Source: Mucilaginibacter sp.
GTDB taxonomy: Bacteria; Bacteroidota; Bacteroidia; Sphingobacteriales; Sphingobacteriaceae
Length of the DNA: 64,000 nt
Direction of reading: 5' to 3'
NCBI GenBank assembly: GCA_035547095.1
Contig: DASZVE010000015.1
Span: forward strand, 17,306 to 81,305
Below are positions 8,723 to 56,761 of this stretch, in pieces. The translations under genes were made by a program, and so were the position numbers. Under the pieces are notes generated by a model that worked only from the letters and a program-made list of their open reading frames with translations, was not told where the DNA came from and did no database searches. Within the stretch, counting starts at the first letter, position 1. Each line of letters starts with the position of its first letter.

Positions 8723-8806
8723 TCAAAGGTACAAAGGCGAAAGGATAAAGGTGAAAGGTTAATCTGGCCATAATCAAACCTTTTACCTTTGGCCTTTTAC
8801 CTTTCA
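8723..8806. repeat. NNAAAGG heptad array (8723-8758) facing its complement CCTTTNN array (8779-8806)
   Basis: The left array reads tcaaagg tacaaagg cgaaagg ataaagg tgaaagg. The right array reads cctttta cctttgg cctttta cctttca. It lies in the divergent ogt/ccmB spacer. Confidence 0.85.
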
Positions 8807-8823
8807 CCTCACAAAAAGTATCT

Positions 8824-12808: not shown

Positions 12809-13999
12809 ATGAGTTTCAGAAGGATTATACTGCTTCTCGTTTTTTTACCTTTTTTCTCTAGCGCCCAAACCGTCATCTCAGGTAAAGTAACCACCTCCGA
12901 GTCGCTTACGCCTATTGGAAAAGTCAGCGTTTTCCTGAGCAACTCGTCTTATGGTACTGAAACGGCCGAGGATGGTACATTCAGACTTGTCGGCGTTAAA
13001 CCCGGTCAATACGAACTGGTTGCCAGTTCGGTTGGGTTCCAGGAGTATTCGGAATTCATTTTAGTAGGCAGTTCGCCCATAACAGTCAATATCAAGATGC
13101 TGCCGAAGATGAATATGCTGCGGGGCGTGGTGATATCAAGCAATGCCGACTGGAAAAAGAACTATGAGCTGTTTCGGAAGGATTTTATCGGAGAGTCGGA
13201 GAATGGCAAAAAATGCGATGTTGCAAACCCTCATACTATGAACCTGGTGTACCACGGCAAAAGCCGGATGCTTGAGGCCTGGTCGAACGACTTCCTGGTA
13301 GTGGATAACAGGGCGCTGGGATACCGGGTTAAGTTCCTGGTGGATACTTTTTCGAGCTCGGGCTTGAGTGGTATTGTTGAGTGGCAGGGCAAGGTGGTTT
13401 TCGAGGAAATGAAAGGCAGCGAAGAACAGAAAAAGGAATGGCGTGAGAAACGCGAGCATATCTACTATGGCTCGCAGCGCCAGTTTTTCCGTTCCCTCTA
13501 TAACAACACGCTTACGCAGGATGGGTTCATCATGTATCACCTGAGCCGCGAACCGAACGCCGACAGGCCGCCCGAAGGCGTGATCCTGGCGAAGATCAAA
13601 TACTTCAGGGAAATAAGATTTAACAGGGATTCATTTAATTATTGGGTCGGGAAGGAAAACCTGTCCAAGTATTACCACGAGCACCTGGATAAAACCCCGC
13701 TCCAGCCTTACCAGGTTTTTGCACAAACGAGTAAGCCCGGTTTGTTTGTACTATCGTTTCGGGACTGTTTGTATGTCGTTTATACCAAAAGACGCGAGGA
13801 GACTGATTTTAAGGACGTATACCGGACGCTGGATATGGAAAATTTTGAAACCAGCATACTTACCCTGATGAAGCCCTATGCCATTTTTGATATGAATGGT
13901 GTGGTAGTCGAGAATGTGCCGCTGGCGGAAGGGAGCTGGTCAAAAGCAAAATTGGGAGAACTTTTACCGTTCGATTACGTGCCGGGCGAGAATAAATAG
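12809..13999 (+). CDS. Carboxypeptidase-regulatory-like (CarboxypepD_reg) domain protein
   Basis: A signal peptide is followed by VISGKVTTSESLTPIGKVSVFLSNSSYGTETAEDGTFRLVGVKPGQYELVASSVGF. Confidence 0.7.
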   Translation: MSFRRIILLLVFLPFFSSAQTVISGKVTTSESLTPIGKVSVFLSNSSYGTETAEDGTFRLVGVKPGQYELVASSVGFQEYSEFILVGSSPITVNIKMLPKMNMLRGVVISSNADWKKNYELFRKDFIGESENGKKCDVANPHTMNLVYHGKSRMLEAWSNDFLVVDNRALGYRVKFLVDTFSSSGLSGIVEWQGKVVFEEMKGSEEQKKEWREKREHIYYGSQRQFFRSLYNNTLTQDGFIMYHLSREPNADRPPEGVILAKIKYFREIRFNRDSFNYWVGKENLSKYYHEHLDKTPLQPYQVFAQTSKPGLFVLSFRDCLYVVYTKRREETDFKDVYRTLDMENFETSILTLMKPYAIFDMNGVVVENVPLAEGSWSKAKLGELLPFDYVPGENK

Positions 14000-14108
14000 T
14001 CCGAAAGTCCGGAAGTCCGTGTAAGTCCGGAAGTATAAATAAATGATTGGGCTCAAAACATCCATGTCACTTCTTTCGGACTTTCCGACTTGTGCGGACT
14101 TTCGGACT
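13999..14108. repeat. GTCCGRAA-type element (13999-14034, starts in the stop codon) and its inverted copy (14070-14108)
   Basis: The first copy reads gtccgaaa gtccggaa gtccgtgtaa gtccggaa gt. The second reads cttctttcggactttccgacttgtgcggactttcggact. Confidence 0.85.
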
Positions 14109-17319: not shown

Positions 17320-17414
17320 ACGGACAATAGTCAACAGTGAACGGTGAATAGTGAATAGTGAATGGTCAGAATGCTTGTCCTGTTCAACTTTCTGACTTTT
17401 GCCGACTTTCGGGC
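17317..17414 (+). repeat. Heptad word array TGAAYRG (7-8 units, 17317-17365, starts at the stop codon), then a degenerate reverse GTCCGRAA-type array (17387-17414)
   Basis: The heptads read tagacgg acaatag tcaacag tgaacgg tgaatag tgaatag tgaatgg. The second array reads actttctg acttttgccg actttcgggc. Confidence 0.75.
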
Positions 17415-22560: not shown

Positions 22561-22803
22561 ATGACAGACGACAAATACGCCCTGCCTATCCACTGGAACG
22601 ATTACGAGGACATTGCTATAGAGCTTTATGAGAAGTTCGGCGATGATTTCGACGAGTCGAAAATATACCGCATCCGTTTTACCGACCTCCTGGAATGGGT
22701 GTTAAGCCTGCCTAACTTTAAGGGTACGCGTGAAGAGTCGAACGAGGGTCACCTGGAGCAGATACAGTCGGCCTGGGTATATGAGTGGCGGGACCACCAG
22801 TAG
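22561..22803 (+). CDS. iscX: Fe-S assembly protein IscX-like
   Basis: 80 aa and acidic. WNDYEDIAIELYEKFGDDFD...IRFTDLLEWV resembles IscX/YfhJ. It sits after fdx, as in isc operons. Confidence 0.6.
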   Translation: MTDDKYALPIHWNDYEDIAIELYEKFGDDFDESKIYRIRFTDLLEWVLSLPNFKGTREESNEGHLEQIQSAWVYEWRDHQ

Positions 22804-22838
22804 GTAGTTTGCAGTTGGCAGTCGTCAGTTTGCATTCC
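22804..22838 (+). repeat. Heptad word array GCAGTTN (5 units), directly after the iscX stop
   Basis: The units read gtagttt gcagttg gcagtcg tcagttt gcattcc. Confidence 0.7.
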
Positions 22839-37221: not shown

Positions 37222-37283
37222 TTCTTTCGGACTTTCCGACTTATGCGGACTTCCGGACTAAACTAACCTTTATCCTTTCACCT
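37222..37283 (-). repeat. Reading on the dnaJ strand: NNAAAGG array starting at the dnaJ stop (37283 down to 37266), then a GTCCGRAA-type element (37259 down to 37222)
   Basis: The plus strand reads ttctttcggactttccgacttatgcggacttccggact ... acctttatcctttcacct. Confidence 0.85.
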
Positions 37284-38440
37284 CATTCAAAATACTCCTT
37301 CATCCGTTCGAAGAAACTCTTTTCGTTCTTACCCGGACTCGGTTTAAAATTCGGCGAGTTTTGCAGCTTTTCCAGCAATTCGCGTTCTTCCCGGCTTAAT
37401 GCTTTTGGCGTCCAGATATTGATGTGGATCAGTTGGTCGCCGCGGTGGTATGAATTTACCTCCGGAACGCCTTTGCCCTTCAGGCGCAATATCTTACCGC
37501 CCTGTGTGCCGGGGTCGATCTTGATCTTGGCTTTGCCGTCTATTGTCGGCACTTCGACGTTCGTACCCAGAGCCGCATCGATAAAGCTGACATGCAGGTC
37601 GTAGATAATGTTATTGCCGTCGCGTTTTAAGGTTTCGTGGGGTATTTCTTCGATCAGGATGATCAGGTCGCCCGCAATGCCGCCGCGCGGCGCGGCATTA
37701 CCTTTGCCGCCCATGCTCAATTGCATGCCTTCGCTAACGCCTGCGGGTATGTTTATGCTGATCAGCTCTTCATCGCGTACTACTCCTTCGCCATGACAAA
37801 CCGTACATTTGGCAGTGATCACCGTGCCTTCGCCGTTACAGGTGGGGCAGGTGCTGGTGGTTTGCATCTGGCCGAGGATGGTATTCGTTACCCGGCGCAC
37901 TGCACCCTGGCCGCCGCAGGTCTTACAGGTCTGCACCGACGAGCGGTCTTTCGCGCCCGTACCGTCGCACGTTTTACAGGCGACCTGTTTGTTTACCTTA
38001 ATTTTCTTTTCGGCTCCGTTAGCGATCTCTTCAAGCGTTAGCCTTACCTTTATGCGCAGGTTGCTGCCGCGTTGCACACGGCGGCCGCCGCCTTGTCTTC
38101 CGCCGCCAAAAAAGCCCTCGAAGGGACTTCCGCCGCCGAAAATGTCACCAAACTGGCTGAATATATCTTCCATATTCATGCCGCCGCCGCCAAAACCGCC
38201 TCCATTGGCCGATTGTGCGTTGGCCGCATGCCCGAACTGGTTGTAACGCTGGCGCTTATCCGGATTGCTAAGCACCTCGTATGCTTCGGCCGCCTCCTTG
38301 AACTTTTCCTCTGCCTCTTTGTCACCCGGATTTTTGTCAGGGTGGTATTTGATGGCCATCTTACGATAAGCCTTTTTGATCTCTTCGGCATCGGCGCCCC
38401 TGGCGACACCCAGTACGTCGTAATAATCTCTTTTTGACAT
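37283..38440 (-). CDS. dnaJ: Molecular chaperone DnaJ
   Basis: Has the J domain (HPDKNPG), a G/F region and four CxxCxGxG zinc-finger repeats. Confidence 0.95.
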
Positions 38441-38447
38441 AGATCCA

Positions 38448-38541
38448 ATTATTGAATTATTGAATTACAGAATTATCGAATAGGCCTCATTAGCAAACTA
38501 TCAATAACTCATTAATTCAATAATTCAGTAAATCAATAATT
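38448..38541. repeat. Octad word array AATTAYNG (38448-38479) and complementary CANTAANT array (38502-38541) in the dnaJ/grpE spacer
   Basis: The left array reads aattattg aattattg aattacag aattatcg. The right array reads caataact cattaatt caataatt cagtaaat caataatt. Confidence 0.8.
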
Positions 38542-39094
38542 AATTTCCAACAACAACCTTAGCGTGACGCGCCACCTTATCGTTCAGGTAGTAGCCTTTT
38601 TCCACTTCGTCTACCACCTTACCCTTCTGATCGTCGCTTGCGGGTATATTGGTTATTGCTTCATGCAGTTCGGGGTCAAAGTCGGTGCCTATAGACGGCA
38701 TTTCTTTCAAGCCCTTTTGGCCAAGTATATTTCTTAGCTTCTGCTGTATTAGCAAAACACCCTCTTTTACGGAATTTATATCGGTGGTGTTCGCCATTGA
38801 ACGGATAGCCCGGTCGAAGTCGTCCAGTACGGGAAGCAACGAAACAATCACATCCTTGCCGGCGGTCTGCAGCAGTTCTGCACGTTCTTTGGTCGTACGG
38901 CGACGGAAATTATCGAACTCGGCATACAAACGCAGGTATTTATCATTTGCCAGCGCCACTTCCTGTTTTAGAAGCTGCTCGGGTGTTTCCTCTTCGGTTT
39001 CCACCTCGTTGCCTTCCGTTGCAGGAGCCTCATCCGTCATATTTTCAATATCGTCTTCTTTCTTTTTTTTCTTTAGCATATCATTCATATTCAT
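38540..39094 (-). CDS. grpE: Nucleotide exchange factor GrpE
   Basis: Contains LRLYAEFDNFRRRTTKE and a GrpE C-terminal beta domain. The start is taken at ATG 39094 (the track ORF starts at TTG 39109). Confidence 0.9.
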   Translation of the reverse strand: MNMNDMLKKKKKEDDIENMTDEAPATEGNEVETEEETPEQLLKQEVALANDKYLRLYAEFDNFRRRTTKERAELLQTAGKDVIVSLLPVLDDFDRAIRSMANTTDINSVKEGVLLIQQKLRNILGQKGLKEMPSIGTDFDPELHEAITNIPASDDQKGKVVDEVEKGYYLNDKVARHAKVVVGN

Positions 39095-39153
39095 GATCCG
39101 GTACCGCAAATCAAGTATCCTGCCAAGGCTTAAAAGACGACAAGCTGACAGAG

Positions 39154-39281
39154 AGTTTTGAGTTGGCAGTTCTAAGTTGACAGTAAGCAGTAGTCAGTTG
39201 GCAGTTTACAGTTATCGGTTGGCACAATTGGTAAGTTGATTTAAATACTGCCCACTGTGAACTGCCCACTGGAAACTGATT
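39154..39281. repeat. Ten in-register heptads AGTNNNN (39154-39223) followed by five in-register heptads ACTGNNN (39247-39281)
   Basis: The first array reads agttttg agttggc agttcta agttgac agtaagc agtagtc agttggc agtttac agttatc ggttggc. The second reads actgccc actgtga actgccc actggaa actgatt. Confidence 0.9.
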
Positions 39282-39963
39282 ACGCTATCTGCACATCCTC
39301 GATCACCCGACCGCTTTCGCATTTGATGATACGTGAAGGAAAGGTGCGTATGATGTGATAATCGTGTGTGGCGATAACTACGGCAGTGCCTGCCAATTGT
39401 ATCTGTTTCAACAGCAGTACGATTTCTTCCGATGTCTCCGGGTCGAGATTGCCGGTGGGTTCGTCGGCGAGGATGATCTCGGGGTCGTTCAGTAAAGCAC
39501 GGGCGATCACCACGCGCTGCTGTTCGCCGCCAGATAGTTCGTGCGGCATCTTCTTCAGCTTCGAGCGGAGGCCCACTTTTTCCAGTACGTCCAGTGTGCG
39601 TTCAGCTATGAGCTTTTTGTCTTTCCAGCCTGTGGCCTTCATCACAAATTCAAGATTCGCCTCCACCGTGCGGTCCGTTAGTAACTGGAAGTCCTGGAAA
39701 ACAATACCGAGCTTTCGGCGCAGAAAAGGGATATCCTTGCCCGCAATGTCTTTTAGTTCGTACCCGCAAACATGCCCCTCGCCCGATTTGATGGGCAGGT
39801 CGCAATAAATAATCTTTAGCAAGCTGCTTTTGCCCGATCCGGTTTGCCCGATCAGCCAAACAAAGTCGCCTTTATCGATGTGCAGATTAACATGCGTGAG
39901 AACCGGGTGACTTTGCTGAAAAATATCAACCCCGCTAAGTTTTATAATAGAATTTCCGATCAT
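39280..39963 (-). CDS. ftsE: Cell division ATP-binding protein FtsE
   Basis: Has Walker A GQTGSGKSS, LSGGEQQRVVIARAL and ILADEPTGNLD, with an FtsE-like length. Confidence 0.85.
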   Translation of the reverse strand: MIGNSIIKLSGVDIFQQSHPVLTHVNLHIDKGDFVWLIGQTGSGKSSLLKIIYCDLPIKSGEGHVCGYELKDIAGKDIPFLRRKLGIVFQDFQLLTDRTVEANLEFVMKATGWKDKKLIAERTLDVLEKVGLRSKLKKMPHELSGGEQQRVVIARALLNDPEIILADEPTGNLDPETSEEIVLLLKQIQLAGTAVVIATHDYHIIRTFPSRIIKCESGRVIEDVQIA

Positions 39964-40168: not shown

Positions 40169-40175
40169 TTTGAGG

Positions 40176-40248
40176 TTACAGGTAAAAGGACCAAGGTTAA
40201 AGGTTGATGCGGACTTACCTTTCACCTTTTACCTTTTGGCTTTCACCT
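40176..40248. repeat. NNNNAGG heptad array facing a CCTTTNN array, with one GTCCG-type unit between them
   Basis: The left array reads ttacagg taaaagg accaagg ttaaagg. The middle reads ttgatgcggactta. The right array reads cctttca cctttta ccttttgg ctttca. Confidence 0.8.
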
Positions 40249-47313: not shown

Positions 47314-47383
47314 TTATAGTTCATGGTTCATAGTTCATAGGCAATTCCGTATTTGCCATGAACTATGAACCATGATCCATGAA
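47314..47383. repeat. Heptad word array TCATRGT (47314-47341) and complementary CYATGAA array (47356-47383), directly after hisIE
   Basis: The left array reads ttatagt tcatggt tcatagt tcatagg. The right array reads ccatgaa ctatgaa ccatgat ccatgaa. Confidence 0.85.
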
Positions 47384-47971
47384 CTACTTATGCCTTCCTT
47401 CCAAATTCTTCGCGATCGTCTCTAAACTCATACCTTTTTCGCGAAGCAAAACCAGTAAGTGGAATACCAGGTCGGAGGTTTCATCAATGAATTCAGTTTC
47501 GCTTTGAGCGAGCGCTGCGATAACCGTTTCAACGGCTTCTTCACCAACTTTTTGGGCGATCTTATTCAGCCCCTTGTTGCGAAGCTTGTTCACATACGAG
47601 CCTTCAACCGGATGCTCATACCGATCGTTAACGATTTCCTCCAGCTCCAGGATAAAGTTTTGGTTATATTCTGTCTTAAAGCAGCTTCGCGAACCGGTAT
47701 GACAAGTGGGCCCGTCGGCTTTAACTTTGATGAGCAGGGTGTCGTTGTCGCAATCTTCATGGATGCTTTTCACATGCAAAAAGTTGTTGCTTGTCTCCCC
47801 CTTGGTCCACAAACGGTTTTTGGAGCGCGAAAAGAAAGTGACGATGTTTTCGGCTACAGTCTTTTCATAAGCTTCCTGGTTCATATAACCCAGCATCAGC
47901 ACTTCTAAGGTTTGCTCGTCCTGTATAATTGCCGGGACCAGCCCGTCGCTTTTGTTGAAATCGATATTCAT
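47384..47971 (-). CDS. hisIE: Bifunctional phosphoribosyl-AMP cyclohydrolase / phosphoribosyl-ATP diphosphatase
   Basis: Contains GLVPAIIQD...[22 protein letters not shown], then a HisE helical part. Confidence 0.95.
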
Positions 47972-50290: not shown

Positions 50291-50300
50291 TTTGTTGTTA

Positions 50301-50361
50301 GAACCAAGAATCAAGAGTCAAGACAGAATCTATCTTGGTTCTTGGCTCTTGATTCTTGGTT
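50301..50361. repeat. Heptad word array GARTCAA (50301-50328) and complementary CTTGRYT array (50334-50361) in the hisB/hisH spacer
   Basis: The left array reads gaaccaa gaatcaa gagtcaa gacagaa. The right array reads cttggtt cttggct cttgatt cttggtt. Confidence 0.85.
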
Positions 50362-50365
50362 CTCT

Positions 50366-56664: not shown

Positions 56665-56761
56665 GTGTTTATAGTTGTATCAGTTGTAGAAGTTGCATTA
56701 ATTGAATTGGTTTGCTAATCGATCCAAACCAATACAACTAATATAACCAATCCAACCAAAA

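Follow-up and report, generated by a model that had tools for sequence, protein, structure and literature searches.

Inverted heptamer arrays behind stop codons and around PF05635 genes in a Mucilaginibacter genome

The closest described counterparts of the element studied here are the ORF-bearing intervening sequences (IVS) of the 23S rRNA of Coxiella burnetii and Leptospira (PMC4990558). In Coxiella, the IVS joins a PF05635 (S23p) open reading frame to tandem GACAGAT heptamers and to a stem that RNase III cuts at the first repeat (PMC4990558). Heptamers are also familiar as intergenic simple sequence repeats (SSRs), such as GGGAATC in Xanthomonas and GGGGAYT in Nostoc (PMC4692102), or TAACTGA, an abundant repeat of Beggiatoaceae, Cyanobacteria and some Bacteroidetes (PMC4679880). 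The REP/BIME elements of enterobacteria, for their part, place many hairpins in 3′ untranslated regions (UTRs) and between cistrons, where they are thought to stabilise the upstream mRNA and modulate expression. Published coverage of the class to which the present element belongs is only piecemeal, coming from heptamer SSRs, TAACTGA repeats and the Coxiella IVS; our literature search retrieved no paper that ties PF05635 genes outside rRNA to heptamer arms, nor one that describes a form residing in mRNA spacers.

In this work, we analyse an element of this kind that lies between ftsE and grpE of Mucilaginibacter sp. (assembly GCA_035547095.1), within a window of 64,000 nt (contig DASZVE010000015.1, positions 17,306 to 81,305; coordinates below count from the first nucleotide of this window unless a contig is named). 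With the ORF-bearing 23S rRNA IVS, it has in common a long stem formed from inverted terminal sequences, tandem heptamers in stem and leader and, in the full form, a PF05635 gene in the loop. It differs in its place, which is an mRNA spacer behind the stop codon of a protein-coding gene rather than helix 25/45 of rRNA, and the ftsE–grpE copy has no ORF and carries degenerate arms in which only a 4-nt core is conserved. Whereas cleavage of the stem by RNase III is shown for Coxiella, we infer it for the ftsE–grpE element by analogy.

The likeness to intergenic heptanucleotide SSRs (PMC4692102, PMC4679880; cyanobacterial STRR) extends to tandem 7-nt units, a strongly intergenic location, an occasional arrangement as inverted pairs and a length that varies between relatives in 7-nt steps; the TAACTGA repeat in particular resembles the 3′ arm here (NAACTGN). 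However, the published accounts of SSRs deal with a single word in each organism, arranged for the most part as direct repeats and in many cases ahead of start codons, whereas the class here uses dozens of words in one plan, that of inverted, stop-abutting arrays with a link to PF05635 cassettes. REPs differ in another way, as they are near-identical copies of one consensus that are mobilised by RAYT transposases, while the elements here have a building plan, not a sequence, in common.

The ftsE–grpE array and its predicted fold

The array is surrounded by an FtsE-like ABC ATPase gene (39280..39963), grpE (38540..39094) and dnaJ (37283..38440), all three on the minus strand, so that this strand, the transcribed one, is the informative one. 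The product of the first has NCBIfam TIGR02673 FtsE as its best match (E = 8.9e-71), at a score of 238 bits that is below the curated cut-off of 264.85 bits. GrpE matches the NCBIfam GrpE models (E = 4.8e-41) and is 83-85% identical to GrpE of Mucilaginibacter MAGs, and dnaJ is called from a profile match and its ORF.

On the plus strand, array 1 (39154-39223) consists of ten 7-nt units, nine of which start with AGT, and array 2 (39247-39281) of five units that each start with ACTG, the last overlapping the ftsE stop codon (TAA, 39282-39280 of the minus strand). When phased on the minus strand from that stop, the element reads (NNNCAGT)x5, a 23-nt spacer and (ACTGNNN-like)x10, and the core common to both arrays is, beyond AGT alone, the 4-mer CAGT with its complement ACTG. 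Arm 1, the 5′ arm in mRNA sense (39247..39281, minus strand; TRF period 14/7), is composed of AATCAGT TTCCAGT GGGCAGT TCACAGT GGGCAGT and begins on the transcribed strand as TAATCAGT, its first unit overlapping the stop. The spacer ATTTAAATCAACTTACCAATTGT (39224..39246, minus strand) forms a gene-less loop, and it is followed by arm 2, the 3′ arm (39154..39223, minus strand), whose ten ACTGNNN-type heptads include the run ACTGTAA ACTGCCA ACTGACT ACTGCTT ACTGTCA ACTTAGA ACTGCCA ACTCAAA (TRF period 7, 9.1 copies, with matches of only 63%).

The phase-locked 7-nt periodicity, which the first-pass annotation of this DNA had pointed out from the letters, is real. Array 1 has a lag-7 identity of 0.63 compared with 0.27 ± 0.055 in shuffles (z = 6.8), and none of 20,000 shuffles reached 0.63; the 0.57 of array 2 was equalled by 2 of 20,000. 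Both arrays are also detected by TRF, and their 7-nt copies exceed chance as in a tandem heptanucleotide repeat. A run of five AGT triplets spaced 7 nt apart is found 7 times in the window, compared with 0.00 expected from shuffles. The array is, as had been proposed, one exemplar of a recurring type in this window.

Further arrays of 7-, 8- or 9-nt units, inverted or single, lie in the window at 8733-8809, 13998-14108, 40173-40248, 47316-47384, 50300-50363, 56673-56759, 22798-22834 and 17326-17366. Their words include AAAGGTT/ACCTTTT, AGTCCGGA/CTTTCGGA, AGGTTAA/ACCTTTC, ATAGTTC/CCATGAA and AGAATCA/TCTTGGT; the array at 22798-22834 is a further member of the CAGT family seen between ftsE and grpE.

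For the sense RNA from 39285 to 39153, ViennaRNA predicts a hairpin (39154..39277, minus strand) of −37.8 kcal/mol with helices of 13, 8, 3 and 5 bp. In the 13-bp helix, 39258-39246 is paired with 39192-39180, in the 8-bp helix 39266-39259 with 39172-39165, the bulge between the two is 7 nt or exactly one heptad, and the outer helices of 3 and 5 bp round off the predicted stem; a 151-nt fold reaches −41.6 kcal/mol (z = −3.0). The two inverted arrays can thus pair through their CAGT/ACTG cores, and their proposed complementarity stands. The accompanying idea that they pair at every other heptad was right about the pairing but too simple about its form, as the fold runs over 13 and 8 bp with a one-heptad bulge.

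In the best fold, the distal five or six units of arm 2 pair with arm 1 and the four loop-proximal units stay unpaired. A register shifted to the loop-proximal units reaches only −27.3 kcal/mol and is about 9-10 kcal/mol weaker than the distal register (−35.9) and the full fold (−37.8). The exemplar is lopsided in this respect (5 units against 10, with four left unpaired), which counts against the explanation that we favour below. When the entire window was compared with Rfam at its gathering thresholds, it matched no family, rRNA included.

Orthologous spacers and elements of the same plan

We compared 81 ftsE–grpE loci, made up of 80 loci from relatives and this window. Synteny is kept in 75 of them, with spacers of 66 to 603 nt, and among the 75 aligned spacers a clear lag-7 signal is seen only here (0.43), in L013 (0.39) and in a few others. 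The expectation that the periodicity would be conserved in related ftsE–grpE spacers consequently fails outside the genus.

Within the genus, about 10 of 19 spacers have, immediately behind the ftsE stop, a CAGT.../...ACTG hairpin whose units differ in number and order, and two use other word families (TTCGGA, GTTCATA). Some variable arm positions match between the arms in mirror order at one locus (L116). Two congeners carry an ORF between CAGT/ACTG arm remnants, one of 151 aa in a 603-nt spacer (L126, G130:C29) and one of 115 aa in a 686-nt spacer (L128, G122:C61); neither ORF has a Pfam match, so that the cargo of a loop at this site need not be PF05635. In more distant genera the spacers are short and 'empty'; that of L008, for example, measures 66 nt and has no such element. 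Judged from these alignments, the ftsE–grpE site is one of fast turnover at which some hairpin is often retained.

To place the array in its genome, we ran TRF on the 4.9-Mb assembly and, by a crude ORF call, took 13% of it as non-coding. Two periods stand out in sharp excess, with 613 arrays of period 7 and 357 of period 8, and these arrays are enriched in intergenic DNA (482 of the period-7 and 247 of the period-8 arrays, against a non-coding share of only 13%). For adjacent arrays of the same period, 129 pairs have reverse-complementary consensus units, and the arms of the exemplar resemble those of 126 inverted 7/8-nt array pairs that TRF detects and that use many different words. A stricter, alignment-free census, in which a region counts as positive when a 42-nt stretch reaches an identity of 0.66 or more at lag 7 or lag 8, found 156 of 2,543 intergenic regions positive; a coding control gave 2 positives and shuffled sequences 0. 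There are roughly 112 distinct heptamer words, the commonest being CCATAGT, CACCTTT and GAGATTT, and the words AAACTGC/AACTGCC of the exemplar account for 18 arrays. CAGT-heptad arrays occupy 11 places in the genome, and at six of these the array is in sense orientation and starts no more than about 6 nt from a stop codon; across Sphingobacteriaceae the distribution of CAGTx4 heptads is patchy (matches in 23 of 121 genomes, up to 145 in one).

The more than 100 elements of this plan follow strict rules of position and orientation. Of 123 inverted pairs, 86 (about 70%) are no more than 15 nt away from a stop codon, and 45 of these 86 also reach the next start codon and so fill the whole stop-to-start gap; these 45 are inside apparent operons, for example at his junctions and between grpE and dnaJ. 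Among 80 oriented elements, 60 have a G+T-rich arm on the stop side, and the element behind ftsE conforms, with its G/T-rich arm first and its first unit overlapping the TAA. After the second arm, an A-rich run and the next start codon follow genome-wide, with no U-tract. The arms are 80% Watson–Crick complementary in the best ungapped register. As only 3 of the 123 elements have a near-identical second copy (at least 85% identity over at least 80% of the length), recent copying is not evident. The single ftsE–grpE array is ordinary for its genome, and the class, which takes up about 6% of the longer intergenic regions under these rules, is of more interest than any one element.

The mismatches between arms are asymmetric in the 80 oriented elements, with G in arm 1 standing opposite T or A in arm 2 127 times and the reverse 40 times. 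The arm beside the following start codon is systematically G-poor, which fits the unstructured, A-rich translation-start regions of Bacteroidota.

Arms around PF05635 genes and a proposed role of the hairpins

The genome has nine matches to PF05635 ('23S rRNA intervening-sequence protein', an Avd-like four-helix bundle). Eight of these nine genes are flanked by inverted 7/8-nt arrays and sit directly behind a stop codon, ahead of the next gene (C95:16634-16945, C14:299-613, C5:51720-52031, C52:56897-57202, C14:45014-45322, C50:36791-37042, C63:7382-7675 and C24:13334-13639); a PF05635 gene on C52 has an internal TAA. The arm words around them are those of the gene-less hairpin families, among them GTTCATA, GTTGTAA, AATTTGAA, TCGGAAT, GTGAATA and AGATGTG. 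None of the nine genes in this genome has CAGT-type arms, and for the exemplar's own word the link rests on relatives.

Among five other Sphingobacteriaceae genomes, most of 30 PF05635 loci that we inspected have flanking arrays of 7- or 8-nt units, which in the usual case form an inverted pair. The word family of the exemplar (TTTGCAG.../...CAAACTG) brackets a PF05635 gene in a genome of the same genus (L106), where TAGTTTGCAGTTTGCA precedes and CTGCAAACTGCCAACTAAAAACTGCAAACTA follows the gene, and CAGT/ACTG arms stand on both sides of such a gene in L084 and L098 as well. Arms of one and the same word family therefore occur both in the gene-less hairpin behind ftsE and around PF05635 genes. 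The arms at L105 are of a related GTTGACA type, and at L102 a CAGT array stands on just one side of the gene. In this way, the class shares its arms with the long-unexplained genes for 'intervening-sequence proteins'. At a further locus (L086, G026:C58:4592-7906), the PF05635 gene has long (T/A)AACTGA/TCACTGA arrays on both sides, in direct orientation; this is the word published as the abundant TAACTGA repeat (PMC4679880).

On balance, we think that the ftsE–grpE element is probably a gene-less, heptamer-armed hairpin that acts behind the ftsE stop codon as a substrate of RNase III or a barrier to 3′ exonucleases. The element would be transcribed as the 3′ UTR of ftsE and fold into a long, imperfect stem that can shift its register and measures about 21-29 bp. 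As is the case for IVS stems, this one may be cut by RNase III, block 3′ exonucleases or do both, and it would then set the 3′ end of the ftsE mRNA and shield the tightly controlled sigma-54 promoter of grpE from read-through. Its 7-nt make-up would be a trace of how stems arise and turn over, through replication slippage of 7-8-nt units combined with copying between arms, rather than the sign of a sequence-specific reader, and the stems are possibly decayed or empty copies of PF05635-bearing cassettes. A role in RNase III processing, or as a 3′-end stabiliser or insulator, is favoured by the analogy to IVS stems, the stop-codon rule, the intra-operon positions and a stem of at least 21 bp; the genome has an RNase III gene (rnc). 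If these stems do prove to be signals for RNase III processing or stability, operons of Bacteroidota would be punctuated on a major scale by elements that annotations leave out.

We regard it as unlikely that the hairpins are instead a neutral or selfish by-product without host function, be it tolerated slippage-prone arrays or decaying remnants of mobile PF05635 cassettes. Such an origin agrees with the rapid turnover at orthologous sites, which affects unit number, word family and presence or absence, and with reports that heptanucleotide repeats are the commonest long SSRs in many bacteria and are ascribed to slippage (PMC4679880, PMC4692102). It also sits well with the lack of a wobble signature in sense RNA, as arm mismatches are G:T in 94 and A:C in 83 cases and this lack of a G:T excess over A:C gives no hint of selection on the sense RNA in particular; fold stability does not differ between sense and antisense either (45 of 80 elements), and both results weigh against the explanation that we favour. 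It does not explain, however, the strictness with which the elements abut stop codons and put the G/T-rich arm first, arms that are still 80% complementary despite the divergence of their units, or a grpE–dnaJ junction that keeps a period-7/8 array, mostly of period 8, in 43 of 80 loci across genera.

Quite unlikely, in our estimate, is that we are looking at a previously undescribed kind of mobile gene-cassette system that targets the position just 3′ of stop codons, with hairpins as its empty or decayed sites and, at this locus, with an ACTGCCA arm co-opted beside the sigma-54 promoter of grpE. The loop cargo would then be PF05635/Avd-like genes at many loci and the unrelated 115- and 151-aa ORFs at ftsE–grpE in the two congeners, and the arms would be built and rebuilt from 7-8-nt words. 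The copy studied here is not of the full-length form of the hairpin class, in which an ORF lies in the loop, as its 23-nt spacer (39224..39246) contains none.

The grpE promoter and the heat-shock question

Conservation in the ftsE–grpE spacers is confined to the 60 nt proximal to grpE, and the array region is not conserved. Adjoining the array is a control element, CTGTCAGCTTGTC-N12-TTGGCAGGATACTTGA, that is conserved in 71 of 75 Sphingobacteriaceae spacers, where it takes the general form CTGaCAGctTGgCtGaTtT-N7-9-TGGCA-N6-TTG(a) (window copy 39152-39137 and 39126-39111). Its first part, a palindrome-like block CTGTCAGCTTGTCGTC (39137..39152, minus strand; consensus CTGaCAGctTGgCtGa in the alignment of 71 spacers), directly abuts arm 2 outside the repeat and is probably an activator or operator site of the grpE promoter. 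The second, TTGGCAGGATACTTGA (TGGCA-N6-TTG; 39111..39126, minus strand), likewise outside the repeat and 16 nt before the grpE ATG, is a sigma-54-type promoter core with exactly the −24/−12 spacing of sigma-54 promoters, its −12 box being TTGA(A), not TTGC.

The genome has rpoN, and further copies of TGGCA-N6-TTG(A) stand before dnaK, clpB, a clpC-like gene and four genes identified by Pfam, namely lon, hsp20, hflX and a thioredoxin gene (trx). The distance to these genes and to grpE–dnaJ is 11-103 nt, and the sites elsewhere in the genome have motif start offsets C41:141528, C14:2260, C53:11854 and C41:25623 on the plus strand and C11:4363, C101:56670 and C37:64557 on the minus strand. In agreement with these sites, a 2025 survey found sigma-54 promoters enriched before groEL, groES, ibpA, grpE, dnaJ and dnaK in Bacteroidota and sigma-54-dependent transcription of grpE in two species of this phylum (PMC12316311). 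The strict composite pattern CTGNCA...TGGCA-N6-TTG occurs at grpE and at one other site in the genome, on C23 and unrelated to heat shock, so that the palindrome part is specific to grpE and the TGGCA-N6-TTG core is shared.

The first-pass annotation had suggested that the spacer holds a heat-shock control element and that the array may be that element. The former is borne out, as the conserved part of the spacer, kept in 71 of 75 loci, is the TGGCA-N6-TTG block; the latter is not. Across the 75 loci, the array does not behave as a heat-shock operator or promoter, which would be conserved before grpE orthologues and common to heat-shock genes, and the same plan recurs with other words at more than 100 unrelated stop-proximal spacers. 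Heat-shock control is not explained by the array, and what controls grpE is, on the evidence of the aligned spacers, a separate conserved sigma-54-type motif directly downstream of it. For annotators, this means that such arrays are not to be taken for promoters or operators, and that the promoter in the ftsE–grpE spacer is the adjacent motif.

A narrower version holds that the ACTGCCA array is a cis part of the grpE heat-shock promoter, either as an activator site or as a decoy for a factor that reads TGGCA. It draws on the fact that the −24 box TTGGCAG(T), read on the opposite strand, gives ACTGCCAA, that 17 of 19 same-genus loci have CTGCCA units ahead of the promoter and that these units are kept even where a clear CAGT 5′ arm is lacking (L121, L125 and L129), which would allow arm 2 a local role. 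Upstream of dnaK, moreover, AAACTGCCAAC stands right before a CTGTCA...TGGCTG motif. Yet the other CAGT/ACTG arrays of this genome are not beside TGGCA-N6-TTG promoters, an identical architecture is built from dozens of unrelated words, and the composite operator pattern returns just once, at the non-heat-shock locus on C23. Because other genera keep the grpE promoter block without such units (two or more CTGCCA are found in only 3 of 74 family loci), we hold this narrower version to be highly improbable, and the hairpin with a role in mRNA processing or stability remains the reading we prefer.

It is more improbable still that Rho-independent termination of ftsE takes place at this hairpin: its stability, its start at the stop codon and its place before a promoter under separate control would suit such a function, but the stem is followed by CTCTGTCAGC and no U-tract, an A-rich sequence and the next start codon come after arm 2 genome-wide, 45 elements fill stop-to-start gaps within apparent operons, and a scan of 38950-39400 for the intrinsic-terminator consensus returned 0 terminator-like sites. 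A dispersed repeat of the REP/MITE type is ruled out by the near absence of near-identical second copies (3 of 123), and a 23S rRNA intervening sequence proper by the position between ftsE and grpE and the lack of an rRNA match in Rfam.

The next junction of the same gene cluster has an element of its own. From the grpE stop to the dnaJ start (38447-38541), a period-8, AU-rich hairpin made of AATTATTG (x4) and CAATAATT (x5) takes up the whole gap as far as the dnaJ ATG. In those of the 43 Sphingobacteriaceae arrays at this junction that we read as examples, the word is a related one, TGAATGAT/TGAATTAG, and in Solitalea (L073) and Pseudopedobacter (L018) the gap is short and empty. That the place of this hairpin is kept across genera suggests a function, possibly in the control of DnaJ translation or in temperature-sensitive melting.
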